Of a DNA stretch of 64,000 nt, positions 5,606-62,671 are shown piece after piece. The DNA is from Gammaproteobacteria bacterium (lineage in GTDB: Bacteria > Pseudomonadota > Gammaproteobacteria > Eutrophobiales > Eutrophobiaceae): positions 415,623-479,622 of the forward strand of contig OZ244890.1 of the NCBI GenBank assembly GCA_965221455.1, given 5' to 3'. Below the pieces are notes generated by a model. That model was not told the origin of the DNA. It made no database searches and saw only the letters and a list, made by a program, of their open reading frames with translations. The first letter of the stretch is position 1. Every line of letters begins with the position of its first letter. A program made the position numbers and the translations under genes.

Positions 5606-6762
5606 ATGGGCATTGTTACTGACATCAAGTTATTGAAAAACAGACGCACTAAAATTCTGGCCACACCGGGACCCGCCTCTAATTCGGCAAAAGTCATCAC
5701 ACGATTAATCGAAACCGGTGTCAATTTATTTCGCTTAAACATGTCCCATGGCGAACCTGTTATTGTCACCACACGCGAAGTTGCAGGAGAAACCGGACTG
5801 ATTCCTTCTCAATACAAAGCCCTGACAAACGATGTCAAAGCCGAAAATCGTATACTGCTTGACGATGGTAATCTTGAGCTTAAAGTGGAAAGCGTTGACG
5901 GCACTGAAATTACATGCACCGTTGTCTGTGGCGGAATTTTAAAAAATAATAAAGGCATTAACCTGATTGGTGTTAACGTCTCAGCACCTTCACTGACAGA
6001 CAAAGATCGTGAAGATGCACAATTTGCATTGGGACTGGGTGTGGATTTTCTGGCATTATCTTTTGTCAGGTGTGCAAAAGATATGGATGATCCAGGCAGG
6101 TTCCAGTTGCCCAAAGTCAATTAATCGACAGGGCCAGACGCAAATTCAAGCCTGCCATCGTGGCTACCCAAATGCTGGAATCCATGATCGAAAACGCCAG
6201 ACCGACTCGCGCTGAAGTCACAGATATCGCTTATGCAGCCACACTTGGTGCTGATGCGGTGATGTTATCTGCTGAATCAGCCACCGGTAGTTTCCCCGTT
6301 GAATCTGTAGAAATGATGGATAGTATTTTGCGACAAACTGAAGCAGTGCTCTGGCAAACCGGCGCTTATGGCACTGCATTAAATACCCCGGATAAGTTAC
6401 CCGTCCCGATATGGGAATCTACGGCGAATGCAAGCAATAGTCTGGCACGAGACTTGATGGCACATGCGCTTATCGTTATTTCTCAGGAAGGCACGTCTGC
6501 TGCAACCATAAGTTCTGCACGACCTGCGGCACCGGTAATTGCGATTTCAAATCAGGTAAATACTTGCAGAAAAATGGCACTAATGTGGAGTATTATCCCC
6601 GTACTGGTTGAAGAAAAAGACATGGGTGATCATAACAACCTGGCAAGAAAAATTGCCAGAGATCTGGAACTGGCAAGTGCAGGAGATACCGTTTTGATGG
6701 TAAAGGGCTTGCACAAAGAGCCGGAATTGAACCGCCCGTCAATCACAATTGTGACTGTTTAA
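5606..6762 (+). pseudogene. pyk: pyruvate kinase, eroded (frameshift plus internal deletions)
   Basis: ORF1 (5606-6124) matches the PK N-terminus (RRTKILATPGPAS...LFRLNMSHG) and B-domain (ILLDDGNLELKVESVDGTEITCTV). ORF2 (6160-6762, GTG start) matches the PK C-terminal half (ATQMLESMI..PTRAEVTD...DAVMLSAESA). The ORF2 frame in fact extends back to 6091 (SRQVPVAQSQLIDRARRKFKPAIVATQML, matching the VEIPVEEV..RARKVVITATQML region). About 50 aa after SHG and about 45 aa (including the ARGDLG region) are missing, and the frame changes at about 6088. Confidence 0.7.
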
Positions 6763-23115: not shown

Positions 23116-23127
23116 TATGCAATTCCT

Positions 23128-27337: not shown

Positions 27338-27362
27338 TTTTTGATCCTCTATTCTCTTTCTG

Positions 27363-29134: not shown

Positions 29135-29241
29135 AAGCTTTTCCTCAATAAAAAATTAAAAACATTGCTGTATCAGCAAACAGCTACAACGTCCAAACGT
29201 CAGATACCCACCCGAAAAAAATATCGGATGAGCAATTTAAC

Positions 29242-38652: not shown

Positions 38653-38734
38653 TGCTTTGCCCCCTTCTCTATAATATTACCTTCTGCTGATTTATTAATA
38701 GCTGATGTGATAGTCCAATTAACAGATAAATCTG

Positions 38735-40090: not shown

Positions 40091-40128
40091 TTTCTTTCCT
40101 CGCCTGACCTCTATCATGACACCTGATT

Positions 40129-41101: not shown

Positions 41102-41107
41102 AAATCA

Positions 41108-42004
41108 TTACCTCTGCCAACTATAGATTGTCGCTGGTTCAGGCTCCCAGATATTTGCATTCTGTACGCCGGGTAAACAGGCCATTGAACGAAATTCAGA
41201 TGCCATTGCAACCCAATCATCTGTTTCCGCAAGAATTGCGGGCTTGGCACCAATCGGATCCCTGACAACGGCAAACCCGTCATACGTACCCACTGCAAAT
41301 GTGTAAAAACCATCCAGGTCTGCAAAACCCGCCTGCAAAGCTTCATCAAGACTTGCTCCATTTTGTAATTTCCATGTCAGATAACCTGCTGCAACTTCAC
41401 TATCGTTATCAGTCTGGAATTCCACACCCTCTCTTTGTAAAGAACGACGTAAACGATTGTGATTGGATAGTGAACCATTATGTACAAGACAGAGATCTTC
41501 CCCGGTTGAAAAAGGATGAGAAGCGGACGTTGTCACTGCGCTTTCGGTTGCCATACGCGTATGTCCCAATGCATGTGTGCCCGACATACCCGCAATGCCA
41601 AATCTATCAATAACGTCTTTTGGTAATCCCTGTTCCTTAAAGATAGTGATGTTGGTTCCTGAACTGGTCATGTACAGATCAGGATGCACATCATGCAACC
41701 AGAGTTGCAGATCTTTTGTATCAGCACTGACCGTCAGCACAGCATGATTACTGTTAAGCTCCAGTTTTGAATTTTCACCAAAGACTTCTTTTAGATCAGA
41801 AGCTAATTTGTCCCATAAATAAACCGGATCGATTGAAAGTACCGTGGTTCGGGTCATACCTTTCTCTACAGCATCACCGTACACAGCTATCCCGGCACTA
41901 TCAGGACCACGCTCGGTCATTTCGACGAGCATTGGTGATAATAAAGCACCCAGTTTATTTTCAAGTTCAGGTGCCTTTATAAAAAGCCCAACAATGCCAC
42001 ACAT
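41108..42004 (-). CDS. class II (Ntn) glutamine amidotransferase (MgsA-like paralog)
   Basis: The start at 42004 gives MCGIVGLF (catalytic Cys2) and is preceded by an RBS gggaggggg. The ORF finder extended the frame to 42022. Confidence 0.8.
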   Translation of the reverse strand: MCGIVGLFIKAPELENKLGALLSPMLVEMTERGPDSAGIAVYGDAVEKGMTRTTVLSIDPVYLWDKLASDLKEVFGENSKLELNSNHAVLTVSADTKDLQLWLHDVHPDLYMTSSGTNITIFKEQGLPKDVIDRFGIAGMSGTHALGHTRMATESAVTTSASHPFSTGEDLCLVHNGSLSNHNRLRRSLQREGVEFQTDNDSEVAAGYLTWKLQNGASLDEALQAGFADLDGFYTFAVGTYDGFAVVRDPIGAKPAILAETDDWVAMASEFRSMACLPGVQNANIWEPEPATIYSWQR

Positions 42005-42316
42005 AACCCCCCTCCCTTGCAAATATATAAATATAATTAGTTACTATAGTATCTCATCAGCTACAGCCAATAAATCCTTTCAATAATATATTATTCCTTA
42101 TATGAATAAATTTACGGACTTAGGTACTAATTTTAACCTGATTTCACGATACATTCGGTAACAGATATACTCGGTTAACGTTGTAAAACATAATACGAAA
42201 AGGGATAACATAATGTCAACTTTTAAGTAATAAAATATTACTATAAAGAATATTTTATTACGCACGAAAGACTTTTTATCGATAATTGAAATTGAATGTT
42301 CTCACCGGTCAGGCCA

Positions 42317-46892: not shown

Positions 46893-47345
<453 letters not shown>

Positions 47346-47411
47346 TGAAAACAACCTATCGACTGGTACGGAAATACCGGACCACTTTAAGTACCCCGCA
47401 GGGGGGAGGGG

Positions 47412-47477
47412 GTTGTTAGTGCCTGTGCCCTGCGCTTTCCCGAGTTTAGCCATGCACATGGGTGGCAAGAAAAGCCG
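47412..47477. repeat. about 55-bp repeat, copy 2
   Basis: The sequence gcctgtgccctgcgctttcccgagtttagccatgcacatgggtggcaagaaaagcc is preceded by a gggggagggggttg motif that is also present at 46584. Confidence 0.55.
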
Positions 47478-47510
47478 GTGCAGTGAGCGTCCATGCTGTC
47501 CATGCAGCCA

Positions 47511-50500
47511 CTACTGCAAGAGTGCCTCGATATTCGTCCTGACCGCATTGAACGATGGATTGCCCGGAATGGTATCAAGCAGGCCCACCGCATCACGAAT
47601 ACCAAACAGGTAGCGACCCAGCAAGAGTCCGTCACTCTGGTTGGGATCACCGCCGCTGCCATCCACATCAAGACGACCGCTGGCGAAAGCCCCCGCAATA
47701 TTCGCCGTGACCGCACTGGCCGAGGGACTCCCGGGAATCGTATCAAGCAAGCCCGCCGCATCACGAATACCAAACAGGTAGCGGCCCAGCAAGAGTCCGT
47801 CACTCTGGTTAGGATCACCACCGCTGCCATCGACATCAAGACTTACCGCCGCTATCTCCGTCACCGTCACGGTCACGGTGGCCGCCGTGACGGTACGATA
47901 GGTGGTGTCGGTACTGGTCACCGTATGCGTGAGTCGCACGGTCTCGTCGTCTGTATCAGCGTCTTCCACTCCCGTCACGGTGATGGTTTTGGCGGTATTC
48001 CAGTCGGTGGTGCCAAACATCAGTGAGGTGGGACTCACCGTCACAGCAGCGGCATTGGAATGGGTCACGCTAATCGTCACTGCTTCCGTCGGTGGGGTAT
48101 TCAAGCGCAGCGTATACATGCCAGTCCCGCCACGTTCATGGACTGTCAGCGTCGTGGAACTCACGAACACGCCCGGGCCGTCGTTATCATTCAAGGTCAC
48201 AGCCACGGAGTCTATCGTCACGGCAGCCCCATTGTAGCCAGGGTCCGTACTTGTCGCTGTATGCGTGAGTTGCACGGTCTCGTGGTCTGTATCCGTGTCC
48301 TCAACACTACTCACCGTCACCGTCCGGGCACTGTTCCAGTTGTCTGTGGTAAACGTCAGTGAGGTGGCACTGAGGGTCACTGCAGTGGCATCGGGATTGG
48401 TCACGGTCAGCGTTACCGGCCCTGTCGGCCGGCTGCTCAGCATCAGGGTATAGCTGGTGCTGTCACCCCCTTCGGTGACATTCAGCGCGGTCGGCGACAC
48501 CCGCACACCCGCTACCGCCACCGGGTCGGAGGTCAGGCTATCGCCTCCCGCATTCGGATAACTCGCCATCACGCGCAACCACGTGCCTATCTGTGATTGG
48601 TCTGATGCAATCGTGTACGTGGCGGTATTATTGGTCCCCGGTGCGGCGGTAAACGGTCCCGCCGAGGCGGTCGCTGTCTGCCATTCATGGGTAATGGTGC
48701 CGACATCGGTAGTCGGTGAGGCGTCCGCATCGGTGACCGCGCCCGCTGTCAGCGTGCCGCCTGCTCTGGCAATGCCGGTGATGGGTCCGATGGCACCGCG
48801 ACGGTCAACCTGTACGCTATTGGAGAACAGGGTGTCGTTGAAATCCCCGCCCTGGGTCACCTGCACCCGCAGCCAGTGAGCATGGTCCGCCGCTTGCACC
48901 GTGTAGGTCGCGCTGGTGCCGTTCGTGCTGATATCTGTTGCGTTGCTACAGTCTTGAGTGGTACAGCGTTGCCATTGATGGGCGTTGATATTGACGGTCA
49001 ACGTGGGATGGCTCAGCGCACCGGCGGTCAAGATATCATCGACCCTGGCCGGGGTGTTGGGGGTACTGTCCTGGATGGCACCTAATGTCGCGGGCACCGC
49101 ATAAATATAGTTGTCGGTGGCACTCAGTTCACCGATGACTTGCCTGGTGATGGCTGCGACACTCGCTCCGATATTGCACAGCGGCGAGTTGGCTTGTGCG
49201 GTTTGTTCGGTGTTGGTCGTGGTCCCCGAGCGCACTCTTAAATCACCGCTGGCGGTACATGAACTGTCCAATAAGCGCACCCTGTTGCTGCCGGATGGTC
49301 GGTAAAACACGATTCCCGGTCCCGGGATAGCGGTCCATGAGAGGTTCGGACGGGACAGGTTGGACTTCAGGACTATATTGGTAGGGCCTGTCACGAACAG
49401 TGTTCCGCTATTCGGGGTCTCTCGCCCAGTTGTGATGAATCGAGGGGTTGTAAACGTGACTGTGCCGCCAGTGGTATCAATGTCCGTTAATTGCAGCCGA
49501 CCATCGCTGTTATTGCGGGTGAGTACCACGCTTGTGATGTCATCACTACCGTAGTTTGTCGCATCGGTATGCCCGGCCGGGCCGTTGACGAGATAGTTAT
49601 TCCAGAAGGTCGCACTCGGGCGGGCCTCGGTTTGCCCGTGGTTGGTGATGTCGGTGCCGTAGGCATTGGCACAATGGCCGCCCGTCCCGGCATTACAGGT
49701 GCGTGTCTGGTTCTTGTCGGTGATATTGCCCGCACTCCAGGCGCCCCAGCCGTCGTTGTAGTTTAGAATACCCACTGCCGTAGCCACAGACTGCTTGGTG
49801 ATGTCGTAAGGGGTGGATTGACACAGGGTACGCAGAGCCTGAGAATCTGATATGTTGGGGGTCACGCCGCCTGAGCTGCGTACCCTTGCGTCCCCGGTTC
49901 TACAATGAATCTCCACTATGTTGTCTACCCCAGGGAGAAATATCCGTCCCGGTCCCGGAATAGCGGCGAAGCCCCCGGTAAACGGGTTGTGCCAGTCGTT
50001 GTCGCCCGCATTCCAGGCGGCGAGGAAGTTGGCGAAGGCCGGGAACGCCCCGAGTAGGGTGGTTCGGAAAGGGAACGACAAGTTGAGGGGCCCTGACTGC
50101 CGGTCATACCACACCTTCAGCGTGGTCGGGCTGATAATCTCCGACATGCCTATCTGAGTCCACCCGCCGGTCGGAATCCCGGAATTCGGGTATAGGACCG
50201 GATTGGTGCCTTCCGGGCAGGGGGTGTTCGGGCCGGGAGTGCCGACGACGTTGACACTGCACGTCCGCCGGGTCGTCAGCGTCTCATTATTGATTGTCCC
50301 GGTGTAGGTGTACGATGCCGTATCCGGTACCGGTACGTCTGCGGACATCGGGGCATTGAACGCGGTATTTAGACTGGCTGCGGCAATCTTGTTGGCGTTG
50401 TATGAGTTGGTTATCTCTAGCGGGGTCGAGCAAAAGTTGGTGTTGCCTTCCAGCGTGTCCATCATCCCCGTCTTTATCAGGCTGGTGCCGGAGGTGGCGG

Positions 50501-51092
50501 GAGTGACAAAGGCAAGTCCGCTGGTACTGTTTCTTTGGCAGCGTACCTCGAATGCCTCCCCGTCCCGGTCATAGACGGTGGACGTGACATCCAATAGCGG
50601 ATTGAGCACCCGCCGAGCCACGGCAACATCAAAGCTGACACCTGTCGCAGTAGCTATGCACAATTCGTTTACGACATTGCTCATAGTATTGCCAACTCCG
50701 CTACCTGTACGGGAGGTGTTAGATGATATTAAGCATGTTCGGATGCCCGAAAGGACCGACTGGTCGGTCACGCCACTCGCGAAAGGACCACCACTGTGAT
50801 TTGTATGGACGTGGCGCCGAAGCACAAACCACGGCACGCTGACCCGATTCGCGTTGGGGTTCCCTGCCACGGTGGTGGCAAAAGTGGTGGTGCCGTCACC
50901 ATCCTCGGAGGTGGTGGTGACGGCGGGATCGCCGCCCAGATTATACTCGTAGCCGTCACCGCCCCCATCCGGGATGACGTAAAAGTCGACCAACCCGCGC
51001 GCATGGAAACTGTCCGAAAGTGGCGCCTGCGCCCGTGCCGCCGGGCTTGCCCATGCCGTCATCAGGGCAACAACGACCATAACCGCCGTCAT
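47511..51092 (-). CDS. large secreted Thr/Gly/Asn-rich repeat protein with C-terminal tandem dockerin-like Ca-binding repeats
   Basis: The likely start is at 51092 (MTAVMVVVALMTAWASPAARAQA, a signal peptide with an AxA cleavage site); the ORF finder gives 51263. The body has tandem roughly 95-aa beta-sandwich-like repeats (..LTFTTDNWNSARTVTVSSVEDTDTDHETVQLTHTATSTD..). The C-terminus has two nearly identical roughly 55-aa repeats (LDVDGSGGDPNQSDGLLLGRYLFGIRDA.GLLDTIPG). The GC content of this gene is far higher than the flanks. Confidence 0.7.
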   Translation of the reverse strand: MTAVMVVVALMTAWASPAARAQAPLSDSFHARGLVDFYVIPDGGGDGYEYNLGGDPAVTTTSEDGDGTTTFATTVAGNPNANRVSVPWFVLRRHVHTNHSGGPFASGVTDQSVLSGIRTCLISSNTSRTGSGVGNTMSNVVNELCIATATGVSFDVAVARRVLNPLLDVTSTVYDRDGEAFEVRCQRNSTSGLAFVTPATSGTSLIKTGMMDTLEGNTNFCSTPLEITNSYNANKIAAASLNTAFNAPMSADVPVPDTASYTYTGTINNETLTTRRTCSVNVVGTPGPNTPCPEGTNPVLYPNSGIPTGGWTQIGMSEIISPTTLKVWYDRQSGPLNLSFPFRTTLLGAFPAFANFLAAWNAGDNDWHNPFTGGFAAIPGPGRIFLPGVDNIVEIHCRTGDARVRSSGGVTPNISDSQALRTLCQSTPYDITKQSVATAVGILNYNDGWGAWSAGNITDKNQTRTCNAGTGGHCANAYGTDITNHGQTEARPSATFWNNYLVNGPAGHTDATNYGSDDITSVVLTRNNSDGRLQLTDIDTTGGTVTFTTPRFITTGRETPNSGTLFVTGPTNIVLKSNLSRPNLSWTAIPGPGIVFYRPSGSNRVRLLDSSCTASGDLRVRSGTTTNTEQTAQANSPLCNIGASVAAITRQVIGELSATDNYIYAVPATLGAIQDSTPNTPARVDDILTAGALSHPTLTVNINAHQWQRCTTQDCSNATDISTNGTSATYTVQAADHAHWLRVQVTQGGDFNDTLFSNSVQVDRRGAIGPITGIARAGGTLTAGAVTDADASPTTDVGTITHEWQTATASAGPFTAAPGTNNTATYTIASDQSQIGTWLRVMASYPNAGGDSLTSDPVAVAGVRVSPTALNVTEGGDSTSYTLMLSSRPTGPVTLTVTNPDATAVTLSATSLTFTTDNWNSARTVTVSSVEDTDTDHETVQLTHTATSTDPGYNGAAVTIDSVAVTLNDNDGPGVFVSSTTLTVHERGGTGMYTLRLNTPPTEAVTISVTHSNAAAVTVSPTSLMFGTTDWNTAKTITVTGVEDADTDDETVRLTHTVTSTDTTYRTVTAATVTVTVTEIAAVSLDVDGSGGDPNQSDGLLLGRYLFGIRDAAGLLDTIPGSPSASAVTANIAGAFASGRLDVDGSGGDPNQSDGLLLGRYLFGIRDAVGLLDTIPGNPSFNAVRTNIEALLQ

Positions 51093-51318
51093 GCCCGCGC
51101 AACGATAAACTCGTGCATCATCATGCAACCCGTGCAATAGCCCGTTCCGCCTCTCGCCGTCCACACAACCCACAATGCCACCCAACTGACACCTCAAACG
51201 CCGCAAAAGACCAAATTGCACACCCAACACATCCGCAGTAAGCTGCGCTTCGTATTCGGTCATAGCAATGTTGCGCCTGGTGGCGGCGCGGTCTGCGCCA
51301 GTGTTGCGGTCTACCGAG

Positions 51319-51358
51319 GGTGCTGTGGTGCTGTGGTGCTGTGGTGCTGTGGTGCTGG
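51319..51358. repeat. octanucleotide simple-sequence repeat (GGTGCTGT)x4 plus one imperfect unit
   Basis: The repeat is seen directly in the sequence. It lies about 230 nt upstream of the predicted start of the secreted repeat protein. Confidence 0.8.
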
Positions 51359-51718
51359 CACTTGCCGCGCAAGTGCCAGCGTGGTGGTGTGTTTACGTGA
51401 TTTTATCAACATATGTCAGTTCCTCTCCCGCGAGCTATTCAGATTGCCCACGTGCCCCTCTCACTCGGCACTGTACATTATCGTACTGACTGCCTCAACC
51501 TCAACCACTGTTCCATGGCAATCTGGCGCCGATGTTGCAGTGCTGCCACTTTTGGCGTAATACCAGCGTGATGGTCCGTTTACGTGGTTTTGTCGGTATC
51601 TGATGCTCTCTCCATGTCCAGTAGAGTGCAACGGGTTTTTGCCATCACTTCCCTTGCTTACCCGGTGTAACACATTCACCACGCTTGAAGTGGCTCGAAG
51701 ATCGGGGGCAGGTCACTC

Positions 51719-52411: not shown

Positions 52412-55400
52412 TCAAATATTCAGCGCCTGTAATTTATTCTTGCTGAAAGCCTCTTGCAGAGACTCATATGTGACACATTCGTAATTATCCATGCGTGCTA
52501 TCAGTTGACCGTTCTGATCGATGAACTCAATAGTGGCCAGGACCCGGTTTTTTGAATGTCCAATGACATTGACATTGATCATGCAATCATCCTTTGGAAA
52601 GGTTTTTTGGAATTGTCTATATTCGCCAATTGCTGTGGGTAAAGAACCCACACCCGATACCTCGAAGCACCAGAGGATCATCAGTTGAAAACCACTATCC
52701 AATACCAGTGGATCGGCAAGCCATGAAGAGCGTATTGGTTTTACCATCCAGTTTGCGGGTGCGCTCGCGGTTTTAACCTGTGCCGAAATACCTTCAGCAC
52801 TACATGCGTCTATGGTGACGATCCCCTGTAACAGTGTGTCGTGGAACAGTCTGTTTGAAGAATAGATTTCGTTTGTCGCCTGCGAATATTCACCGTTAAT
52901 CGCTTGAGTACCCGGGGCTTCTTGCTGAATTTTATCTGTGGTTAAAATAATTTCTGCACGGGCATGTCGTACTTTACCGCTGCGTAACTCGACAAGGATG
53001 ATATTTCCGTCTTCATGTTTGCGCGGACTTCCGGCGAGAATATCAAGTTCAATCGTCTCGTCCATATCCAGAGTGATGCCTTTGAGGATACGGAGATTTC
53101 TAAAGCCGAGATAGTTCAGGCCGGGATTATTATGTATTGCACCATGGGCAAGCCATTCGCATATCATTGCCACAGGTAATACGGCTTGACTATTGATCAC
53201 ATGTGATTTCAGAAAATCATGATCCGCCACATTCAGGTTCCTTGTAAAGGACGCCTGCATATTGTCCACAGGAATTTCTTCTACATATCCCTTTGCATTG
53301 ATATTTTTCTCCGGGACTTCTGTGGCACCTGACACGACAACTTCAACAGGACCCTGGTGTGTGATCTCTTGCATGAGATAGTCAGCACCCGCTTTCAGGT
53401 CAATGATACCAATCCCTTCATTTTTAAAGATTTTCTTTAATGCGGGGGTGACCATGCCGCCGTCCCACGGCCCCCAATTAACACTGATGATCCGACAATC
53501 TTTACGCAAGGTTGCCTGTTGTTGTGCGATTTTATTCAAGGCTTCATTGGCAACCGCATAATCACACTGGCCTTTTCTGCCAAAACGTCCTGTCGTTGAT
53601 GAGAACAGGACCATGATCTTTAATTGATCATTTTCAGTTGCTGCAAGTAAGGAATCCAGTCCTTTAACTTTAGTCGCATAAACTTCTGAAAATTGTTCTC
53701 TGGTTTTATCTGCGATGAGTTTGTCCGCCAATACGCCTGCACCATGAACAAAACCGGCAATATGACCAAGGGTTTTCCTGGCTTCGTCAATTGCCGCGAT
53801 AACTCCAGTTTTATCTTGTACATCGACTGCGCGATACATTACTTTTACACCAGTCGCTGCAATGCGTTGTAGATTGTTGCGGATTTCTCTAGCAGTGAGT
53901 ATTTTGTTACAGGCTGCATTTAATTCTTTCGGCTTTATTGCCGTGGGCGTGGCACTTTTGCTGTCTTGCGCAAGCAGTGCTTTTTTAATTTCAGCTTCTG
54001 TGCCGAGTTCCGCCAACCATGCAGCTTCCGGTTCAGGTTGCTCACTACGTCCCAGTAGTAACAAATTCGTTTGACAGGTTTCCGCCAATGCCAACGCAGT
54101 CCTGGCTGTAACGCCGCGTGCGCCGCCAGTCACGACAACAACATCCTGTGCATTCAGTGGTGCAGAAATTTTATTTCCATCAATCACCGCTTCGTTGAGG
54201 TCGAGTATGTAACGTTGATTATTCACGATCCCAACTTCCAATACGCCCTCTGACAAGCATTCATCAACGACATTATTCGCCAATTTCCTGATGTTATTGC
54301 TCATTTTAACATCAATGGCTTTGCATGAGACTCCCGGCCATTCTTTATCAGCTGTTTTAATCAGGCCTGCGATACCACCGGAAATCGGGCAAGTCTTGCC
54401 AACCCCGTTTAGTCCAAACCTGCCGCCCATTCGGGTGACGCTGGCGAGCAGCGCTGCCCCGGATTTTCCTGCCAGGCGTAATGACTCGCCGATGCGTTGA
54501 ACCAGCATAAAACTTTCCTGCATAAAGGTCTGTTCCGGAGTCTCGGGGGTCAAGATGATCAAGCCTGCCGGCGTTTCATCATATTCGCCGGGCACAGCAG
54601 CAAGCGATATCATCCTGGGCTTGAGACCTTTTACCTTGAGTGATTCACAAATCGCCTGAGTGAATACGGGAGTGTCTGTCGTTACCCAAACAATCGCATT
54701 CTCTTGCAGAGATAGTTTTTCCTGTGCTTGTGTTAATGGCACTGAAGACAAAACTTGTCTATTAATTGTCGTCACGGCTTTTTGGTTCCCGGAACCCATT
54801 TCAGTTACATTTTCCCGGGATGTTATTGCATGCGTCGTTGCAGGTGAACTTGCCAGCATGTGATCAACAATTTGTTGCAGGGTTTGTAATGTCCCTAAAT
54901 CTTCAGGTTTTACTGCAGGTATTGCCGGAATATTTTCCTGCAGGGCAGATAAAATTTCCACGCGCTTGATTGAATCAATGCCAAGATCTGCTTCAAGATT
55001 CATATCCAGATTGAGCATATCCACCGGGTAACAGGTCTTGTCTGCAACCACCTCAAGTATGACTTCAGCCAGTTGTTCCCTATCTGCAGCGGCAGTTGCG
55101 GACGACATTGTTTGTGCAAACCTGCCGCCACTACCTGCGGCAAGGAAATCGACGATTTGTTGTAACGTTTGTAAATTAGCCAAATCTTCCGGACTGACCA
55201 TCGGCGCTTCCGGCAATCGCTCTTGCAGCGCTGATAAAATCTCCACGCGCTTGATCGAGTCTATACCTAAATCGGTATCCAGACTCATCTCCAGACTCAA
55301 CATATCCATGGGATAACCGGTTTTATCACTCACGACTTCCAGTAATACGTCGGCAAACAAGTCTTTATTTGGTATCGCATTTTTAGAACCCGGGACTGCA

Positions 55401-58400
55401 CCCGGAATAATCGCCGGTGCTGTCGTTACCACTTTTGGCGTGGCGGCGACAATGAATTCAACAATATTTTGCAAGAACTGGAATGTGCCCAACTCTTCCG
55501 GATTTACCGTTGGTGCGCTGGGTAACTTTTCCTGTAATGCAGATAAAATTTCCACGCGCTTGATTGAGTCGATACCCAGATCGGTATCCAGACTCATGTC
55601 CAGACTTAGCATTTCCAGCGGATAACCCGTCTTCTCTGCGACTACTTCCAGTAAAATGCTATGGACTTCTTCATCCGCATGAATGGTTTTTTCTGTTTCT
55701 ACAATTTCAATCGTGGGCTTGTCCTGTTCAATGAGCCGAGATGTCGCGGCAGGCACTCCGGGGGATAACTGCTCCGGCGATGCCGGTGCCTCTTGCATCT
55801 CTGGAGATCGTGTTGTGATTGGTTGTGCTTGTACTGAATCGAGACCTGATAACTCTTGTTGTTGTCGCAGAAATTGGGAAATCGTTAGCTGCGCTGTTTC
55901 CTGTCCCTGCAAATATTGCTGATGTAGTTTCGCAGTTTGTTCCTGCATCTTCTGCAGGGCAAGTATACTTTCACGGGTAGTCTCTAATGCGTTTTGTCTC
56001 TGCAGGCCTGTGGTTGTGACAGCAGGTGTTTTTTGTGTCGCAGTGGTACTGTTCGGAACCGGATTTTTCATTTTTGCGTCTGCTGACATTGGCTGTGGTA
56101 TCGGCGTTTGCGATATTGGCGTTTGGATTCGTGGTTTTATTTGTGGAGTTCTTGCCGGACGTTTTTCCACAGGCTTCATGTAGTTTGTGCCGGATAATGA
56201 CATTGTCATCGCCGGTTTTTTATCAACGGCGTTTTGATTTTCTTCGGCTGCTAACGAATGCAGATAACCTGCATCCCACTGCGATAGATCAATACCCTTA
56301 TCCAGCACTGCAAGGCCAGCGAGTAAATTGGCGAGATCAACTTGACCATGTCGTTTACCGGAAGAGTTATCCAGTGACAGGATTTGAAATTCATTCACAT
56401 CATTTTTATCGCTTATGATCGCTGTCACCAAACCGCTCAAACGACTCCCCGGACCAACTTCGACAAAAGTGCGGACGCCTGCGGCGACCATTTTCCCAAC
56501 TTGTTCAACAAACCTGACAGGATGCGCAAGTTGTCCTGCAAGTAGGCGTCTGATCTCATCTTGATTACCAGGGTATGCATCAGCCGTTGTATTCGCCAGC
56601 ACGGTCATCACACTTTTGTGCAATTCAATCCCCGCCAATGCCTCTGCAAAAGGACGTTCTGCATCGGCAACAAACTTACTGTGGAACGCTGCCGAGACAG
56701 GTAATTGTGTCACACGTAACTTGCGACGTTTACAAAGTTTGATGGCTTTTTCTATTTGGTCGGTGGCACCGGATAAAACAATTTGTTTGGGTGCATTATG
56801 GTTGGCAATCACCAAATCGAGTTTTTCTGCCTGAATCAAGGATTCAACAACGCCTGGCTCAGCCAGTACCGCCAGCATTGAACCTCGATCCCCTTCGCCT
56901 TCCGCCATTAGACGGCCGCGTAGCAGAGATAATTTATGTAATGCTGTTTCATCGAATACGCCCGCAGCACACAAGGCAACCAGTTCGCCGTAACTGTGAC
57001 CTGCGGCAATATCCGCCTTGAAACCAAAACTCTCAAGTATACGCAAACCAGACAAACTTACGGCACCAATCGCTGGTTGTGCATGATATGTGTGCCGCAG
57101 AGTCTCTTCCTGAGCTTGTCTTGCCGTATCGTTGAATACAGGAATCGGGTAGATGATATCAGTCAGTCGGGAACCGTGTTTGCTTTCGCCTTTACAGGCG
57201 TTGGCGTTACTCAGGATATTATTAAACTGTGGAAACTGGCAGGCTAAATCGCGCAGCATGCCGACATACTGTGCGCCTTGTCCCGGGAATAATAATCCTG
57301 TTTTGTGTTTGTGTGCACCGCAGGCATAGCTGGCGCCTACAGGTAATTGCCAGAACTTTTTCGATGGTTCTTCTGCCAGCATCTTACTGATATTTTTGAT
57401 CAGTAGTTGTAAATCTGTTTTATCTTTTTCCATGATAAGTATCAGTCGATGTTTTTTCTTCGCATCAAACTTTGCACACGTGCTTGCCGCCAGTGCTCGA
57501 TATGCAGACCATGATTGTTTATCGTCGATTGCATTTAGCCGTTCTGTCAACGCTGTTTGCGAATCCTCGCTCAAGGCAATGAGCAATACGCGACCGTCCC
57601 AATCCATTTCTGCATTATTATCTTCAGCCTCTTCAAGCACGCAGTGGAAATTACTGCCGCCAAAACCAAATGCACTCAATGCTGCACGTCGTCGATGTGA
57701 ATCACTGGAAACCCAGGGGCGTTTCACTGTGTTGATATAGATTGGTGCTTTCCCCGGTTCCAGGGGTATCAGTGGTTGATCGACCTTGAGCGTTGGTGGT
57801 AATACTCTATGCTTCAGCGCCATGATTGCCTTGATCATCCCGGCAACACCTGCCGCAGATTTGGTATGACCAATCATTGACTTCACCGAACCCACAGCAC
57901 ACCAGGTATCTTCTGCATTCGCTTTGCGGTAAACCTGATCAAGCGCGTTTACTTCAACCGCATCCCCGACAGCGGTGCCTGTGCCATGCGCTTCAACGAG
58001 TTCTATTGACTCAGGAGAAATACCGGCTTGTACGTAGGCATCTTCCAATGCTTTAATCTGGCCTGCGCTACTTGGTGCGTAAATGGCATTGCCACGACCG
58101 TCACTTGAAGTACCAATACCTTTAATCACGGCATAAACTTGATCGCCATCCCGTTCAGCATCCGCAAGACGTTTTAATATAACCACTCCCATACCTTCAC
58201 CGAGGACAGTACCATCGCCATTCAATGCAAATGGACGGCTATCGCCTGTCGGTGAAAGCGCAGGTGTTTTACTAAAACACATATACATAAAAATATCGTT
58301 GAAAGTGTCCAGACCGCCAGCAATGACCATATCAGAACGACCGGCAGCGAGTTCCAGTGATGCCAGATGTATCGCACCTAATGAGCTTGCACACGCGGCA

Positions 58401-59077
58401 TCCACTACGCAATTGGTGCCACCGAGATCAAATCTATTCGCAATACGGCCCGCAGCGACATTGCCTAACAAACCGGGAAACGAATTTTCTTGCCAGGGAA
58501 CATAACTATCGGAAATTCTCTGCACAACATCTTCCGCAGTTTCCGGATCAACACCGGCTTTCGCTAAAGCGTCGCGCCAGACCGGATGTCCCAGTCTCGC
58601 CCCAAGCGGTATTACCAATTCGAGTGTGCCGGTCACTCCCAGTATGACGCTGGTACGATCACGGTCAAATTCTTTACCATCACCAACATCTCTGCCGGTG
58701 GCATAACCGGCATCAAGTAAAGCTTGTCTGGCAACTACCATACCGAGTAATTGTGTGGTGTCGGTGGCCTCAATATTATTCGGACTTATGCCGTACTGCA
58801 GTGGATTGAAATTTACCGGATCAATAAAACCACCACGTCGACAGTAAGTCATATCGGGAGTCTTTTGATTGGCATCAAAATAATCCTCAGGATTCCAGTG
58901 TGAATCGGGAATGTCTGTGATGGCATCAACTCCCTCTCGAACATTCGACCAATATTCACTGACATCACCTGCCTTCGGGAAAAGACAGCCGATACCAATG
59001 ACGGCTAATGGAGAGGCCTGATTCCTGTTTTCCTGTTTCTTTTCCATAGTCATTTGATCATGATAAATTTTGTTCAA
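52412..59077 (-). CDS. PfaA-like polyketide/PUFA-type synthase: KS-AT-ACPx3-KR-DH
   Basis: The 2221-aa protein has, in order: a KS N-terminus (AVIGIGCLFPKAGD, with the active Cys in a DAACASSLGA context), an AT domain (GHSYGE), three tandem ACPs (each LGIDSIKRVEILSALQE), a KR domain (VVVTGGARGVTA), and a C-terminal PKS-type DH domain (HDFLKSHVINSQAVLPVAMICEWL). Its start overlaps the enoyl reductase gene stop. An alternative start at 59053 (MTMEKK) removes the overlap. Confidence 0.85.
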   Translation of the reverse strand: MNKIYHDQMTMEKKQENRNQASPLAVIGIGCLFPKAGDVSEYWSNVREGVDAITDIPDSHWNPEDYFDANQKTPDMTYCRRGGFIDPVNFNPLQYGISPNNIEATDTTQLLGMVVARQALLDAGYATGRDVGDGKEFDRDRTSVILGVTGTLELVIPLGARLGHPVWRDALAKAGVDPETAEDVVQRISDSYVPWQENSFPGLLGNVAAGRIANRFDLGGTNCVVDAACASSLGAIHLASLELAAGRSDMVIAGGLDTFNDIFMYMCFSKTPALSPTGDSRPFALNGDGTVLGEGMGVVILKRLADAERDGDQVYAVIKGIGTSSDGRGNAIYAPSSAGQIKALEDAYVQAGISPESIELVEAHGTGTAVGDAVEVNALDQVYRKANAEDTWCAVGSVKSMIGHTKSAAGVAGMIKAIMALKHRVLPPTLKVDQPLIPLEPGKAPIYINTVKRPWVSSDSHRRRAALSAFGFGGSNFHCVLEEAEDNNAEMDWDGRVLLIALSEDSQTALTERLNAIDDKQSWSAYRALAASTCAKFDAKKKHRLILIMEKDKTDLQLLIKNISKMLAEEPSKKFWQLPVGASYACGAHKHKTGLLFPGQGAQYVGMLRDLACQFPQFNNILSNANACKGESKHGSRLTDIIYPIPVFNDTARQAQEETLRHTYHAQPAIGAVSLSGLRILESFGFKADIAAGHSYGELVALCAAGVFDETALHKLSLLRGRLMAEGEGDRGSMLAVLAEPGVVESLIQAEKLDLVIANHNAPKQIVLSGATDQIEKAIKLCKRRKLRVTQLPVSAAFHSKFVADAERPFAEALAGIELHKSVMTVLANTTADAYPGNQDEIRRLLAGQLAHPVRFVEQVGKMVAAGVRTFVEVGPGSRLSGLVTAIISDKNDVNEFQILSLDNSSGKRHGQVDLANLLAGLAVLDKGIDLSQWDAGYLHSLAAEENQNAVDKKPAMTMSLSGTNYMKPVEKRPARTPQIKPRIQTPISQTPIPQPMSADAKMKNPVPNSTTATQKTPAVTTTGLQRQNALETTRESILALQKMQEQTAKLHQQYLQGQETAQLTISQFLRQQQELSGLDSVQAQPITTRSPEMQEAPASPEQLSPGVPAATSRLIEQDKPTIEIVETEKTIHADEEVHSILLEVVAEKTGYPLEMLSLDMSLDTDLGIDSIKRVEILSALQEKLPSAPTVNPEELGTFQFLQNIVEFIVAATPKVVTTAPAIIPGAVPGSKNAIPNKDLFADVLLEVVSDKTGYPMDMLSLEMSLDTDLGIDSIKRVEILSALQERLPEAPMVSPEDLANLQTLQQIVDFLAAGSGGRFAQTMSSATAAADREQLAEVILEVVADKTCYPVDMLNLDMNLEADLGIDSIKRVEILSALQENIPAIPAVKPEDLGTLQTLQQIVDHMLASSPATTHAITSRENVTEMGSGNQKAVTTINRQVLSSVPLTQAQEKLSLQENAIVWVTTDTPVFTQAICESLKVKGLKPRMISLAAVPGEYDETPAGLIILTPETPEQTFMQESFMLVQRIGESLRLAGKSGAALLASVTRMGGRFGLNGVGKTCPISGGIAGLIKTADKEWPGVSCKAIDVKMSNNIRKLANNVVDECLSEGVLEVGIVNNQRYILDLNEAVIDGNKISAPLNAQDVVVVTGGARGVTARTALALAETCQTNLLLLGRSEQPEPEAAWLAELGTEAEIKKALLAQDSKSATPTAIKPKELNAACNKILTAREIRNNLQRIAATGVKVMYRAVDVQDKTGVIAAIDEARKTLGHIAGFVHGAGVLADKLIADKTREQFSEVYATKVKGLDSLLAATENDQLKIMVLFSSTTGRFGRKGQCDYAVANEALNKIAQQQATLRKDCRIISVNWGPWDGGMVTPALKKIFKNEGIGIIDLKAGADYLMQEITHQGPVEVVVSGATEVPEKNINAKGYVEEIPVDNMQASFTRNLNVADHDFLKSHVINSQAVLPVAMICEWLAHGAIHNNPGLNYLGFRNLRILKGITLDMDETIELDILAGSPRKHEDGNIILVELRSGKVRHARAEIILTTDKIQQEAPGTQAINGEYSQATNEIYSSNRLFHDTLLQGIVTIDACSAEGISAQVKTASAPANWMVKPIRSSWLADPLVLDSGFQLMILWCFEVSGVGSLPTAIGEYRQFQKTFPKDDCMINVNVIGHSKNRVLATIEFIDQNGQLIARMDNYECVTYESLQEAFSKNKLQALNI
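54860..55680. repeat. three tandem roughly 300-bp repeats encoding the ACP domains of the PfaA-like gene
   Basis: Nucleotide-level repeats (for example cgcgcttgattgagtc.atacc.agatc.gtatccagactcat) recur at about 54961, 55247 and 55557. Confidence 0.8.
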
Positions 59078-60734
59078 TCACATTGGTTTTGAGCGGTGTT
59101 ACACGAGTTAACTGGTCAGGGAGTTTTACACCCTGATTACGTAAAGTATTCGTACGTGTCACCACAGTCGCACCATAAAGAATATTCATGGCGACTGTAT
59201 CAACCGTTCTATTGGTCGGCTCTGCCAACCAGGAATCCTTGCTCCATTCATTGAATGCACCCATCGAGGGACCACACCAAACCTGGTAATCCACTTGTCT
59301 TGATTCTTCGCCTGAGTTGGCCCATCGTGACGAGAGTCCCAGGTACCAGCGGAAGATCAGTGCCATTTTATGTTTAGGGTCTTGATCGGCTTTAATAATT
59401 TGTTCCGGATCACGTTCATCGAAAAAATCTCGCGTCAGTTGCCAAATGTCTGTCAGGGGTGCCTTGAAAATTGTTCCTTCCAATGAGTTCCTTTCTTTTT
59501 CCGGAATAGCATCAATGGAATCGTGGGTCTGATAGAGTTCATAAAGTTTGTTACCACGCATGGCAAACATGGTGCCGCGTTTTAGGACTTGTAACTTCAC
59601 ACCCATTTCAAACATATCAACCGCAGGTGCCATTATGACATCGGCTTGTTGTGCGTCGGCCAACATTCTGCGCACGATGTCACTGCTACCTGATTCAACG
59701 CAGGCTTGATTGACCGTGCCGGTAACAATGTACGCAGCCCCCATCGAAAAAGCCGCCGCCGCAGATGCCGGCGTCGCGATACCGCCTGCAGCTCCGACTC
59801 TGAGTGGTTTAGCGTAATTGAATTCTTTTTGTAAACGATCACGCAGTGCCATCATGGTCGGTAATAACGTAATTGCAGGTCGGTTATCGGTATGCCCTCC
59901 GGAATCCGCTTCTACTGTAAGATCCTGTGCCATTGGTATTTGCGCAGCAAGCGATGCCTGTTCTTCCGTAATGTCTCCGGACGCAACCAATTGTAACAAC
60001 ATTTCTTCCGGCGGTGGGCTGAACCATTTGCTGGCAATTTCAACACGAGAGGCTTTGGCAATAATTTTGTTTGGGGTTTCTATATCGCCGGATGTGTTTC
60101 TGTGAATATCATGAACACGATAACGAACAGTGGGTAAAGTGAGTTTCATGTAGGCTGATGTTTCAATAAGCCGGATCCCATACTTCAGATACAGGGAAAC
60201 AACAGCGTCTTCGTGTCCCTTTTCATTAGGGGAAAAAATAAGGTTTAAACAATAAGGCTTTGGCGATACAGTTTCTGTGAGATATTGCACTGCTTTTTCA
60301 ATTTCACTGAGCGTCAAACCTGCCGCACCGAAAGAAGCCAATAACTTTGCATTTGCTGCTGCTTCAACGAGTTTGGTCGAGGCGATCCCGTTCGCCATGG
60401 AACCACACATATAGGGGAAACGTAGATGATGATCTTCACAAAAGCTGACATCACCCAATTGACGCGGTGAACTGGCAGGAGAAAATCCAGTTAATGACAG
60501 GCCGTCTGAATCAATTCGTCCGCCGATGTTTATTTGGCCTTGCTGGCTTACCATAAGCTGTTGGTTTTGATCTTGTAATACATAAATAGCCTGGCTCAAA
60601 TTACCAATAGCCTTGCGTATGTCTGTGTCTTGCTTGATAAGTGTTGAGGTATCGCCAAACCAATAACCCAACGCTGCATTTGTCCTGCTGATAGCCTTGT
60701 TTTTTGCCAGTGGTATTTGTGTTATTTGAGTCAT
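59058..60734 (-). CDS. PfaD-type enoyl reductase (FMN-dependent, 2-nitropropane dioxygenase/FabK-like TIM barrel)
   Basis: The conserved AAGGIATPASAAAAFSMGAAYIVTGTVNQACVESGSS segment is present. The start is taken at 60734 (MTQITQIPL), which has an RBS aggaa; the ORF finder gives 60788. Confidence 0.8.
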   Translation of the reverse strand: MTQITQIPLAKNKAISRTNAALGYWFGDTSTLIKQDTDIRKAIGNLSQAIYVLQDQNQQLMVSQQGQINIGGRIDSDGLSLTGFSPASSPRQLGDVSFCEDHHLRFPYMCGSMANGIASTKLVEAAANAKLLASFGAAGLTLSEIEKAVQYLTETVSPKPYCLNLIFSPNEKGHEDAVVSLYLKYGIRLIETSAYMKLTLPTVRYRVHDIHRNTSGDIETPNKIIAKASRVEIASKWFSPPPEEMLLQLVASGDITEEQASLAAQIPMAQDLTVEADSGGHTDNRPAITLLPTMMALRDRLQKEFNYAKPLRVGAAGGIATPASAAAAFSMGAAYIVTGTVNQACVESGSSDIVRRMLADAQQADVIMAPAVDMFEMGVKLQVLKRGTMFAMRGNKLYELYQTHDSIDAIPEKERNSLEGTIFKAPLTDIWQLTRDFFDERDPEQIIKADQDPKHKMALIFRWYLGLSSRWANSGEESRQVDYQVWCGPSMGAFNEWSKDSWLAEPTNRTVDTVAMNILYGATVVTRTNTLRNQGVKLPDQLTRVTPLKTNVIEQNLS

Positions 60735-60943
60735 CTTGATATTCCTGCGAAACTTAAATACATTCCTCCCCAAAACCGGATAAATCAAGGATCTGGTAAA
60801 GAAACCGGGTCGACCATTATATATGAATTTACCCTGGCAGAGGCGCTCTTCAGCAGTCTTAATCCGCAGGCGGAAACAAGTTCCATCCCAAAACTCCAGT
60901 GTAATGAGGATGTTATTTATTAGTTGTTGATTAATATAATAAG

Positions 60944-61789
60944 TTATTTTTCCGCGACAATATAAGCGATCCAGCCAGCATCAGCTTCGCCTACGGTCGA
61001 AGCAGTAAAGATTCCATCGCCCTCGTTTGTGTCTTCGTCTGTTCCTTCCCAGTATACGGTTGCCTTGAAACCCGCTTCAGTCAGCATTTCAGTGAGTTCA
61101 GGTAAACTCCACAATCGCCACCCATAAGTGAAAGCCTTGTTTATTTTCGAGCCATCCCTGAATTTGAAATGAATATGACAGACACAATGTCCGGTGACGG
61201 GGTTATAGCTTGCCTGATCCCAAATATAGGTAAATTTGTCGTGCTCGGTGGATTCCTTCATTTCCTGATAGGCTTCATAGCCACCAAACGCATCAAGAAA
61301 CAGGATCCCGTCATCAAACAAACTGTCATGAATTTTTTTGAAATATTGAATCATGACCGGGCGCTCTTTAAAAAACCAGTAACTGAAATTCATCGCCAAT
61401 ATGATATCCACCTTGCCGGTATCTACCGATATAACATCGCTATTAACGAGTGTGATACGTTGAATTTGCTCCCCGGTTAATTTACTGACCTTGTGTTCTT
61501 GCCCCCACGCCAATACTTTTTCGTCTAAATCGACGGCAATGGCTTTATTTGTTTCACGACGACGAACCCACTCGCAAGAGGTATTTGCAGTACCGCAAAA
61601 ATCTTCTCTAAGAACCCCGGCCTTGCGACCTCTCAGCTTTTGAAATGTTTCATCAACAAAATCAATTTCGGATTCGACACACTGTACGGACTTCTCATAA
61701 AGAACATTAACATCGGCTTTATCCGCCATTGTTTTCCCATTGCCGGATTTTTGATGTTTATTGAAACGATGCTTTTTCTTATGTGCCAT
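60944..61789 (-). CDS. class I SAM-dependent methyltransferase
   Basis: Motif I (LREDFCGTA) and motif II (AIAVDLDEKVL) are present. The N-terminus is Lys-rich. The gene is on the same strand as the PfaD/PfaA-like genes, 155 nt upstream of them. Confidence 0.6.
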   Translation of the reverse strand: MAHKKKHRFNKHQKSGNGKTMADKADVNVLYEKSVQCVESEIDFVDETFQKLRGRKAGVLREDFCGTANTSCEWVRRRETNKAIAVDLDEKVLAWGQEHKVSKLTGEQIQRITLVNSDVISVDTGKVDIILAMNFSYWFFKERPVMIQYFKKIHDSLFDDGILFLDAFGGYEAYQEMKESTEHDKFTYIWDQASYNPVTGHCVCHIHFKFRDGSKINKAFTYGWRLWSLPELTEMLTEAGFKATVYWEGTDEDTNEGDGIFTASTVGEADAGWIAYIVAEK

Positions 61790-61921
61790 GATCCACGAGC
61801 CGACGCTGTTTGATTGTTATATTTATTCGAAATCGCGGGGATTATAAACTTTTAGGCACATTGAACAATAGCTTGCCAGGCCAGTCCAACCTCGCATTGT
61901 TATTTATTTTGGCATGGTCAA

Positions 61922-62671
61922 ATGTTTAAATTTACACTACTGTTCCTTGCACTCGTCTTTTACACGGATGCCTCAGTTCAAGCTGAAGTGATTATTACCA
62001 GTCCCAATACCCGCGTAAATTTACTTGAACTATATACCTCTGAAGGTTGTAGCAGTTGTCCACCGGCTGATATATGGGTAAGCAAACTCAAATTACATCC
62101 GGGTTTATGGAAATCAATCGTGCCCGTGGTTTTCCACGTCGACTATTGGAATTACATCGGCTGGAAGGACAGGTTCTCATCAGCAGAGTATTCATCCCGA
62201 CAACGTGGTTACGCACGATCAAAAAAATTGCAAACAGTTTACACGCCCGGGTTTCTACTCAATGGTCAAGAGTGGCGATCTTTTTTCGGTTTAAAAAAAC
62301 CGCCGGCCAAATCAAATGAACAGGTCGGTTCTCTGGAATTGATAGTAAACAACAGAGAAGTTGCAACTGTTTTTATGCCTGCTGGAGGATTGGATGAATC
62401 AGGGTATGTATTAAATATTGCGGTACTGGGTTTGGGTATCAAGACTGATGTGAAAGCCGGAGAGAATATTAACAAGGAGCTAAAACATGATTTCACGGTA
62501 TTGGGGTACAAGAAGATTTCCATGAACAGGAATGATTCCGGGCATACGATCAAAACCGGACTTCCGGATATCGTGGAAACAGCACCAAAAATGGCGGTAT
62601 CTGCCTGGGTGAATAAATACGATGATCCAACACCGATTCAGGCTGCAGGTGGTTGGCTGGAAAAAGATTGA
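61922..62671 (+). CDS. DUF1223-family secreted protein (thioredoxin-like)
   Basis: A signal peptide precedes the DUF1223 signature LELYTSEGCSSCPPAD. Confidence 0.65.
   Translation: MFKFTLLFLALVFYTDASVQAEVIITSPNTRVNLLELYTSEGCSSCPPADIWVSKLKLHPGLWKSIVPVVFHVDYWNYIGWKDRFSSAEYSSRQRGYARSKKLQTVYTPGFLLNGQEWRSFFGLKKPPAKSNEQVGSLELIVNNREVATVFMPAGGLDESGYVLNIAVLGLGIKTDVKAGENINKELKHDFTVLGYKKISMNRNDSGHTIKTGLPDIVETAPKMAVSAWVNKYDDPTPIQAAGGWLEKD

Follow-up and report, generated by a model that had tools for sequence, protein, structure and literature searches.

Pfa synthases feed the OleABCD enzymes that yield the hydrocarbon 31:9, and the pfaE or oleABCD genes may be clustered with the other pfa genes or lie elsewhere in the genome (PMC6463001). 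Pfa-like clusters of Type I, in which pfaB and pfaC are fused, are found together with ole genes, and 31:9 is produced by Geobacter bemidjiensis (PMC3098273). The window analysed here, a 64,000-nucleotide stretch of a gammaproteobacterial chromosome, contains a pfaD-pfaA pair that an initial annotation had read either as a minimal, self-sufficient two-gene synthase or as a truncated remnant. We consider it probable that PfaD and PfaA are instead subunits of a conventional Pfa synthase with its genes at two separate sites of a single chromosome.

The pfaD-pfaA gene pair

The pair occupies two ORFs on the minus strand (59058..60788 and 52412..59077), uninterrupted across 8.3 kb, with pfaD upstream of pfaA. 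pfaD (59058..60734, minus strand) codes for a 558-aa Pfa synthase subunit, an FMN-dependent enoyl-ACP reductase; its likely start is the ATG at 60734, as placed initially, and its stop is the TGA at 59060-59058. pfaA (52412..59053, minus strand) encodes the KS-MAT-ACP x3-KR-DH megasynthase subunit. The first in-frame ATG of pfaA, at 59053, gives a protein of 2213 aa, whereas the 2221 aa reported earlier correspond to a real ORF that depends on an upstream TTG at 59077. Depending on this choice of pfaA start, the pfaD stop therefore leaves a gap of 4 nt or creates an overlap of 20 nt, and either spacing would be compatible with coupled translation. Promoter and terminator scans of the sequence returned scores no better than those of shuffled sequence.

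Family membership of PfaA was judged by the curated HMM cut-off, which it passed (NCBIfam TIGR02813 omega_3_PfaA, 1612 bits, cut-off 1010). Similarly, PfaD passed TIGR02814 pfaD_fam (621 bits, cut-off 449), showed Pfam matches to NMO, FabD_helical_ins and PfaD_N, and aligned almost end to end with PfaD proteins of known structure (6lkc, E = 1e-168; 4yx6, E = 1e-164). The closest named relatives of PfaA among its top 120 matches were deltaproteobacterial (Malonomonas, 52% identity; Geobacter, 53%).

The domain order KS-AT-ACPx3-KR-DH proposed for PfaA was recovered by Pfam search, and every active-site residue that had been singled out (KS Cys, AT GHSYG, KR Tyr, DH His) was found; Pfam positions below are numbered on the 2221-aa ORF and catalytic motifs on the 2213-aa protein, and all domains lie on the minus strand. 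The KS domain (57782..59014; PF00109 and PF02801, aa 22-432) carries its Cys in DAAC(221)ASS, HGTGT at 356 and GH at about 395. It is followed by the malonyl/acyl transferase (AT/MAT) domain (56378..57292; PF00698, aa 596-900), with GHSYG at 685 and AAFH, and by three tandem ACP domains (54854..55681; three PF00550 PP-binding stretches), each with an LGIDS motif (Ser 1163, 1266 and 1361). Internal DNA repeats were detected by blastn in this ACP stretch, from 54864 to 55654. The ketoreductase domain (53462..54139; PF08659, aa 1647-1872) contains TGGARGVT and Y1832xxxN, and the PKS-type dehydratase (PS-DH) domain (52457..53260; PF21089 and PF14765, aa 1940-2207) contains a His at about 1950 and the Asp of D2119xxxQ.

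Relative to the nearest relative locus, L043, dN/dS was 0.14 for pfaA and 0.10 for pfaD (dS 0.65-0.77), values that average over the whole divergence from L043, such that a very recent relaxation would escape them. Purifying selection acts on both genes, and neither is disrupted. The initial annotation was correct in describing a PfaD-type enoyl reductase gene adjoining a PfaA-type gene.

Candidate partner genes outside the window

No PfaB, PfaC, PfaE or Ole gene, nor any other KS, AT, FabA or PPTase gene, was found in the rest of the 64-kb window (Pfam search of 38 further ORFs, and tblastn), and neither the 52 kb downstream of the pair nor the 3.2 kb upstream contains pfaBC. The reported lack of partners in the neighbourhood therefore holds for the whole window. 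Elsewhere, the exact PfaA (P0001) and the exact PfaD (P0126) of the window were found on a contig of 2,504,188 bp. Two further proteins, each a singleton on a 2,504,188-bp contig, come from the same sources as P0001 and P0126: P0146, a PfaBC fusion of 2248 aa with the architecture KS-CLF-AT-two FabA-type dehydratases, and P0258, an OleA of 399 aa. Judging by the identical contig size and the matching sources, P0146 and P0258 appear to be encoded on the window's own chromosome, outside the window.

Both proteins are full-length and have their catalytic motifs. P0146 is 70% identical to PfaBC of the relative locus L001; its domains are KS, KS-like, AT and FabA, it retains the Cys of the KS, the Ser of the AT and two His motifs of the FabA type, and its AT region scored slightly below the cut-off of pfaB_fam (130 bits, cut-off 144). 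P0258 is 92% identical to OleA of locus L004 and scored 479 bits against NF006720 (cut-off 285); its cluster relatives are named acyl-CoA:acyl-CoA alkyltransferase by JGI. A Cys stands at position 123 of P0258, inside a conserved motif, and this number matches that of the C123A OleA mutant of S. pealeana (PMC6463001), a comparison made by number alone, on unaligned sequences. With the chromosome assigned as above, the genome would thus hold a PfaC-type subunit (KS-CLF plus two FabA-type dehydratases) together with a PfaB-type AT, both in P0146, and, in P0258, an OleA thiolase with its active-site Cys. Of the 120 best PfaA matches, one lies on the 2,504,188-bp contig, and therefore no second close pfaA that could pair with P0146 was seen among them.

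These findings bear on the possibility that PfaD and PfaA need no partner and work as an iterative type I FAS, the product being a long saturated or hydroxylated chain like that proposed for the Type J cluster. Between them, the two proteins do have all the domains for elongation and reduction (KS, AT, ACP, KR, DH and ER), any partner lying downstream would be more than 52 kb away, and a two-gene pfaD-pfaA cluster has already been described in Type J (PMC3098273). However, the genes for a PfaBC fusion and an OleA lie on a contig equal in length to the window's chromosome, and P0146 has no other close pfaA there among the top 120 matches. Neither the pair nor the window contains a release domain or enzyme (TE or PfaB-type AT), and, as described below, the orthologous pair is linked to pfaBC-ole in every relative with enough sequence. 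We regard independent action of the pair as very unlikely. With PfaBC and OleA apparently encoded at another place on this chromosome, and with PfaA passing the PfaA model, we conclude that the pair is not a minimal stand-alone system, and the saturated or hydroxylated product suggested for it loses its footing as well.

A methylated product had also been suggested, on account of the gene upstream of pfaD (60944..61789). This gene showed a weak match to SAM methyltransferases (Methyltransf_12, E = 4e-5, below the cut-off; PDB 1wzn, E = 4e-5). It has more than 583 metagenomic homologues, and pfaD follows only in the clade that is 79-83% identical; at the loci of more distant homologues with room downstream, pfa genes were found beside none of 55. 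We rejected it as a tailoring enzyme because it is widespread and linked to pfaD in its closest clade only, leaving O- or C-methylation by the neighbouring gene unsupported.

Gene order in relatives and the break beside pfaA

In relatives, the full system consists of pfaD-pfaA, a variable spacer, a divergent pair of RND pump genes and then pfaBC-oleA-oleB-oleC-oleD-PPTase, this partner block lying 4.5 to ~12 kb downstream of pfaA. At L001, which like L005 comes from OZ253445.1, and at L002, pfaD-pfaA is followed by the RND pump pair and then, 4.5-7.5 kb downstream, by pfaBC. At the nearest relative, L043, the pfaA contig ends within the C-terminal part of an RND gene and a pfaBC contig from the same sample begins within the N-terminal part of an RND gene; from these contig ends, the two halves are probably ~12 kb apart. 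The orthologous pfaD-pfaA pair was linked to pfaBC-ole in every relative for which enough sequence was available. In Planctomycetota and Elusimicrobiota, pfaD-pfaA-pfaBC-oleABCD is contiguous. Gene order in the pathway varies: other phyla have it fully contiguous, whereas the gammaproteobacterial clade has it split, with the RND pump pair conserved.

OleA directly followed pfaBC in 39 of 40 loci from several phyla, the exception being L029, which stops at the end of pfaBC, and most of the 39 also carried OleB, OleC and OleD. The OleC of relatives had as its best specific match the Shewanella olefin beta-lactone synthetase (696 bits, below the NCBIfam equivalog cut-off of 850), and OleD similarly matched 2-alkyl-3-oxoalkanoate reductase (496 bits, below the cut-off of 580). 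A PPTase gene follows oleD in L003-L007, L020 and L034. By analogy with these loci, PfaBC is probably linked to Ole genes in the present genome as well.

Homology between the window and L043 extends from 62286 down to 52426 and ends at the pfaA stop codon (blastn). This places a synteny breakpoint at the 3' end of pfaA (52412..52426), the point at which the spacer, the RND pair and pfaBC-oleABCD-PPTase follow in relatives. Beyond the stop codon, the window instead contains a DUF4124-like ORF, a high-GC island of 4 kb and part of an IS element, and no window gene downstream of pfaA matched a spacer gene of L001, L002, L043 or L044. The 165-aa ORF reported as a DUF4124 periplasmic protein is present, but its match to DUF4124 falls below the cut-off (E = 0.007). 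The island described as foreign is real in composition (~47.4-51.7 kb; 55-64% GC versus ~44% elsewhere), and the 64-kb window showed no tRNA gene that might mark its boundary. Genes for methylamine utilisation are present in the window too. Since synteny with L043 breaks at this junction, the suggestion that the partners were separated from pfaA at a site now occupied by foreign DNA was borne out.

Such a break, together with the high-GC island and IS fragment next to it, might be taken as a hint that an insertion or rearrangement beside pfaA cut the pair off from its partners and left it to decay in disuse. Against this, the ORFs are uninterrupted over their 8.3 kb with all catalytic motifs, the partner proteins are full-length with theirs, and dN/dS is 0.10-0.14, albeit as an average over the whole divergence that is blind to very recent relaxation. 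With both genes intact and under purifying selection, the truncated remnant proposed initially is very unlikely to fit this locus. A more speculative proposal, to which we give little credence, is that in this lineage of Gammaproteobacteria the junction between pfaA and RND pump-pfaBC-ole is an insertion hot spot that has carried the two halves more than 52 kb apart, and that PfaD and PfaA, with all the domains of a saturating FAS cycle between them, might also act in the manner of Type J without PfaBC; alternatively, the conserved RND pump might be an exporter dedicated to the polyolefin.

Proposed pathway and comparison with known systems

By analogy, we infer the joint action of the two loci, the operon organisation in this genome and the product. 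In the split Pfa/Ole pathway that we favour, with steps drawn from established knowledge of Pfa and Ole enzymes, PfaBC would supply the activities absent from the pair: a second KS with its chain-length factor, a PfaB-type AT and two FabA-type dehydratase/isomerases. A PPTase would activate the three ACPs of PfaA, the MAT would load malonyl units, and chain elongation would fall to the PfaA KS together with the KS/CLF of PfaBC. The KR would reduce the beta-keto group, dehydration would be shared by PfaA, through its PKS-type DH, and PfaBC, through its FabA-type DHs, which would also keep selected double bonds in cis, and PfaD would reduce the remaining enoyl intermediates. OleA would then condense two polyunsaturated acyl chains head to head, and OleD, OleC and OleB would convert the condensation product to a long polyunsaturated hydrocarbon. 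The likely product is therefore a polyunsaturated acyl chain that is condensed by OleABCD to a long polyolefin of the 31:9 type, and part of the PUFA might possibly enter phospholipids.

A Pfa synthase dedicated to membrane PUFA of the EPA, DHA or ARA type, with an incidental ole linkage, has to be weighed here. In its favour, PfaA and PfaD score above the cut-offs of the omega-3 PUFA synthase models, and in Shewanella the Pfa synthases produce EPA as well as the 31:9 precursor (PMC6463001). However, the position of OleA directly after pfaBC in 39 of 40 loci argues for a dedicated Pfa-Ole link, and Type I-like clusters have been proposed as suppliers of olefin precursors (PMC3098273). We hold membrane PUFA as the sole purpose to be a less probable reading, though one of some weight; the two fates are compatible, and the system may make both products. 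The initial annotation had itself reasoned that finding the partner genes elsewhere as an operon, with a KS that groups firmly with PUFA PfaA, would make this a conventional, merely split synthase. A PfaBC apparently encoded elsewhere on the chromosome and a PfaA that passes TIGR02813 agree with that reasoning, while the operon and a PfaE-type PPTase were seen in relatives only.

These observations caution that a biosynthetic system cannot be called minimal from one window, as the partners were found only by going beyond it, to the genome and to relatives. The significance of the locus lies mainly in annotation. A clade of uncultured marine or sediment Gammaproteobacteria carries genes of the Pfa/Ole polyolefin pathway.

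Among known systems, those of the HglE type have a partner without FabA-type DHs, whereas P0146 has FabA domains, and no type III PKS gene, as would accompany an ArsA-type alkylresorcinol FAS, was found in the window or in the relatives' loci. Type J of Planctomyces limnophilus (PMC3098273) has an identical local layout, in which a KS-MAT-ACP3-KR gene comes after the ER gene and no partner adjoins the two. In contrast to the present case, in which PfaBC (P0146) and OleA are apparently encoded at another place on the chromosome, the two Type J genes were described as the only pfa genes of their genome, without a PfaC-type partner, and as "apparently partial". The Type I pfa-like cluster (PMC3098273) shares the PfaA architecture KS-MAT-ACP x3-KR(-DH), PfaD as the ER, a PfaBC fusion partner with KS-CLF-AT-two FabA-type DHs and co-occurrence with ole. 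It differs in being contiguous, whereas the genes here are split over at least two loci, with an RND pump pair and a variable spacer between pfaA and pfaBC in the gammaproteobacterial clade, and the host here is an uncultured gammaproteobacterium. The present system departs from Shewanella pfaEABCD plus oleABCD (Allemann et al., 2019, PMC6463001) in the fusion of PfaB with PfaC and in a PfaA with three ACPs rather than four to six, and canonical Shewanella PfaA is absent from the top 120 PfaA matches, the weakest of which is ~50% identical. The enzyme set is nevertheless shared, as is an OleA that would draw on Pfa synthase intermediates, and for the Shewanella pathway, too, the genome may have its pfa, pfaE and ole genes at separate sites.

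The pfaD and pfaA genes in the window

Both ORFs of the two-gene locus, pfaD (59058-60734) and the large gene pfaA (52412-59053), are present on the minus strand of the window. The most likely start of pfaD is the ATG at 60734 and its TGA stop occupies 59060-59058; with the earliest in-frame ATG of pfaA, at 59053, the gap between the genes is 4 nt and the product 2213 aa. The megasynthase ORF of the initial annotation is real, but its length of 2221 aa is obtained only with a TTG start at 59077. Pfam annotation of PfaA (KS, AT, three PP-binding domains, KR, PKS-type DH) bore out the proposed KS-AT-ACPx3-KR-DH order, and the active-site check that had been suggested found the catalytic motifs complete. 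PfaA scored 1612 bits against the NCBIfam PfaA family (curated cut-off 1010) and PfaD 621 bits against the PfaD family (cut-off 449); almost the entire PfaD protein could also be aligned with PfaD structures already solved (E 1e-168 and 1e-164). Compared with L043, the nearest relative's locus, dN/dS was 0.14 for pfaA and 0.10 for pfaD (dS 0.65-0.77, unsaturated), and these ratios indicate that both genes are maintained.

Pfam scans detected no KS, AT, FabA, PPTase or Ole genes among the 38 further window ORFs, and tblastn of the window with relatives' PfaBC, RND and adaptor proteins matched only the paralogous KS of pfaA. The claimed lack of partner genes in the neighbourhood thereby extends to the whole 64-kb window. 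Its other content comprises methylamine/N-methylglutamate pathway genes, an ammonium transporter, folD, signalling proteins, an IS3-type transposase and a split pyruvate kinase. Two paralogous gene sets (glutamine synthetase-like, GATase/GXGXG/Glu_synthase type; 25991-30711 and 37345-42022) lie alongside a sarcosine-oxidase-like complex (19234-24426), an FAD oxidoreductase, the ammonium transporter and folD. The gene content of 19234-42022 resembles that of a duplicated N-methylglutamate pathway serving methylamine use, and is suggestive of a methylotrophic lifestyle. The two adjacent pyruvate kinase ORFs (5606..6124 and 6160..6762; window 5606-6762) may reflect pseudogenisation by a frameshift, or else a sequencing error.

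Flanks of the locus

The upstream neighbour of pfaD (60944-61789) resembles class I SAM-methyltransferases weakly (PDB 1wzn, E=4e-5), matched no curated family above threshold, and has >583 homologues in marine and sediment metagenomes. It is followed by pfaD in 7/7 metagenome loci of the 79-83%-identical clade with downstream sequence, and also in the relatives' loci L001, L043 and L044, but in 0/55 loci at 57-70% identity with room downstream. The methyltransferase neighbour initially described is there, whereas a role as cluster tailoring enzyme was rejected on the 0/55 count; the gene adjoins pfaD through lineage-specific synteny. Divergent from it lies an intact DUF1223 gene (61922-62671); at L043:6616-6957 the DUF1223 match covers 114 residues only, beside two SpoU methylase gene fragments.

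On the other side, the stretch of the window that is homologous to L043 at the DNA level (52426-62286) ends at the pfaA stop codon, beyond which the window genome carries 52 kb or more of other DNA. Because homology stops there, the pfaA 3' junction is judged variable within the clade. In L044 (a 71%-identical relative), an IS30-like transposase (HTH_38, rve; L044:9572-10492) lies immediately 3' of pfaA, which fits the idea of the junction as an insertion hot spot. The ORF reported downstream of pfaA exists (165 aa), but its DUF4124 match is below threshold (E=0.007). The high-GC island reported beyond it was confirmed at ~47.4-51.7 kb (47400-51700; 55-64% GC vs ~44% background) and looks like foreign DNA. 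It holds a 1250-aa ORF on the minus strand (47511..51263), whose sole family match is a sub-threshold fn3_6, and is bordered by an integrase-core (rve) fragment (46899..47348). A short CAGCACCA tandem run occurs at ~51330-51365, just upstream of this ORF. Together with an intact IS3-family transposase (HTH_21, rve, rve_3; 9201-10049), the rve fragment shows past activity of mobile elements in the region. The initial proposal that partner genes had been moved away at the boundary with foreign DNA gains some support from the end of synteny at the pfaA stop and the foreign segment downstream. Overall, the facts of the initial annotation were right and the neighbours roughly as described.

Partner genes in relatives and, in all likelihood, in the same genome

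In L001 (PfaA 68% identity, 2.13-Mb chromosome) and L002 (66%), pfaD-pfaA is followed by a divergent RND permease/periplasmic adaptor pair and then a PfaBC fusion of 2253 aa, with pfaA-to-PfaBC start distances of 4.5 and 7.5 kb, respectively. The RND/adaptor pair, directly upstream of pfaBC (L001:16744-20837; also L002-L007 and the end of L043), is present in 7/7 close gammaproteobacterial loci; among the relatives' loci compared, it was found neither in L020 nor in those of other phyla. Its score of 498 bits is well below the multidrug-pump cut-off of 1250, and the pair might serve in export or placement of the lipid product. OleA directly follows pfaBC in 39/39 loci with sequence there (40 pfaBC loci compared; L029 ends with pfaBC and hence falls outside the count). 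OleA, OleB, OleC and OleD lie downstream of pfaBC in L004 and L005, with a HetI-like PPTase after oleD in L004 and a homologue found by tblastn in L005; in Planctomycetota and Elusimicrobiota the loci run without interruption as pfaD-pfaA-pfaBC-oleABCD. In L043 (PfaA 79% identity), ~9 kb of unrelated genes follow pfaA, and the contig then breaks off within the C-terminal part of the RND gene. L004, which comes from the same sample, opens within the N-terminal part of the RND gene and leads on to pfaBC-oleABCD-PPTase; the two contigs are probably adjacent.

The window's exact PfaA and PfaD correspond to P0001 and P0126, whose recorded contig is 2,504,188 bp long. A search with a relative's PfaBC found P0146, a 2248-aa singleton with the same sources, on a contig of exactly this size. 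It contains KS, KS-like (CLF), AT and FabA domains, with the KS Cys, AT Ser and two FabA-type His motifs present. A relative's OleA likewise led to P0258 (contig also 2,504,188 bp), with a Cys at position 123 inside a conserved motif; a C123A OleA mutant is listed in PMC6463001, a likeness by residue number. Of the top 120 matches to PfaA, a single homologue lies on the 2,504,188-bp contig, which leaves P0146 without another close PfaA as partner. The placing of P0146 and P0258 on the same chromosome as pfaA-pfaD rests on the identical contig size. Judged from these records, the Pfa/Ole partners are almost certainly encoded in the same genome, and the reading of the locus as a minimal two-gene synthase is refuted by PfaBC and OleA on the 2,504,188-bp contig, by the initial annotation's own test of partner genes elsewhere.

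Comparison with known Pfa and Ole systems

The locus is best read as the PfaD/PfaA half of a Pfa/Ole polyolefin pathway, and we infer a polyolefin product. Published work supports this assignment. The Pfa synthase provides a 16:4 intermediate that OleA condensation converts to a 31:9 hydrocarbon, and pfaE and oleABCD may either cluster with pfa or be located at other genomic sites (PMC6463001). Genomes with Type I clusters, which carry the pfaBC fusion, also have ole genes, and 31:9 is produced by Geobacter bemidjiensis (PMC3098273). The Pfa/Ole system is already known; the member described here belongs to an uncultured gammaproteobacterial lineage. Locally, the locus has the same two-gene layout as Shulse and Allen's Type J cluster; however, Type J is defined by the lack of a partner, which does not hold here. 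Taken as a whole, the system corresponds to Type I plus ole with its genes split up.
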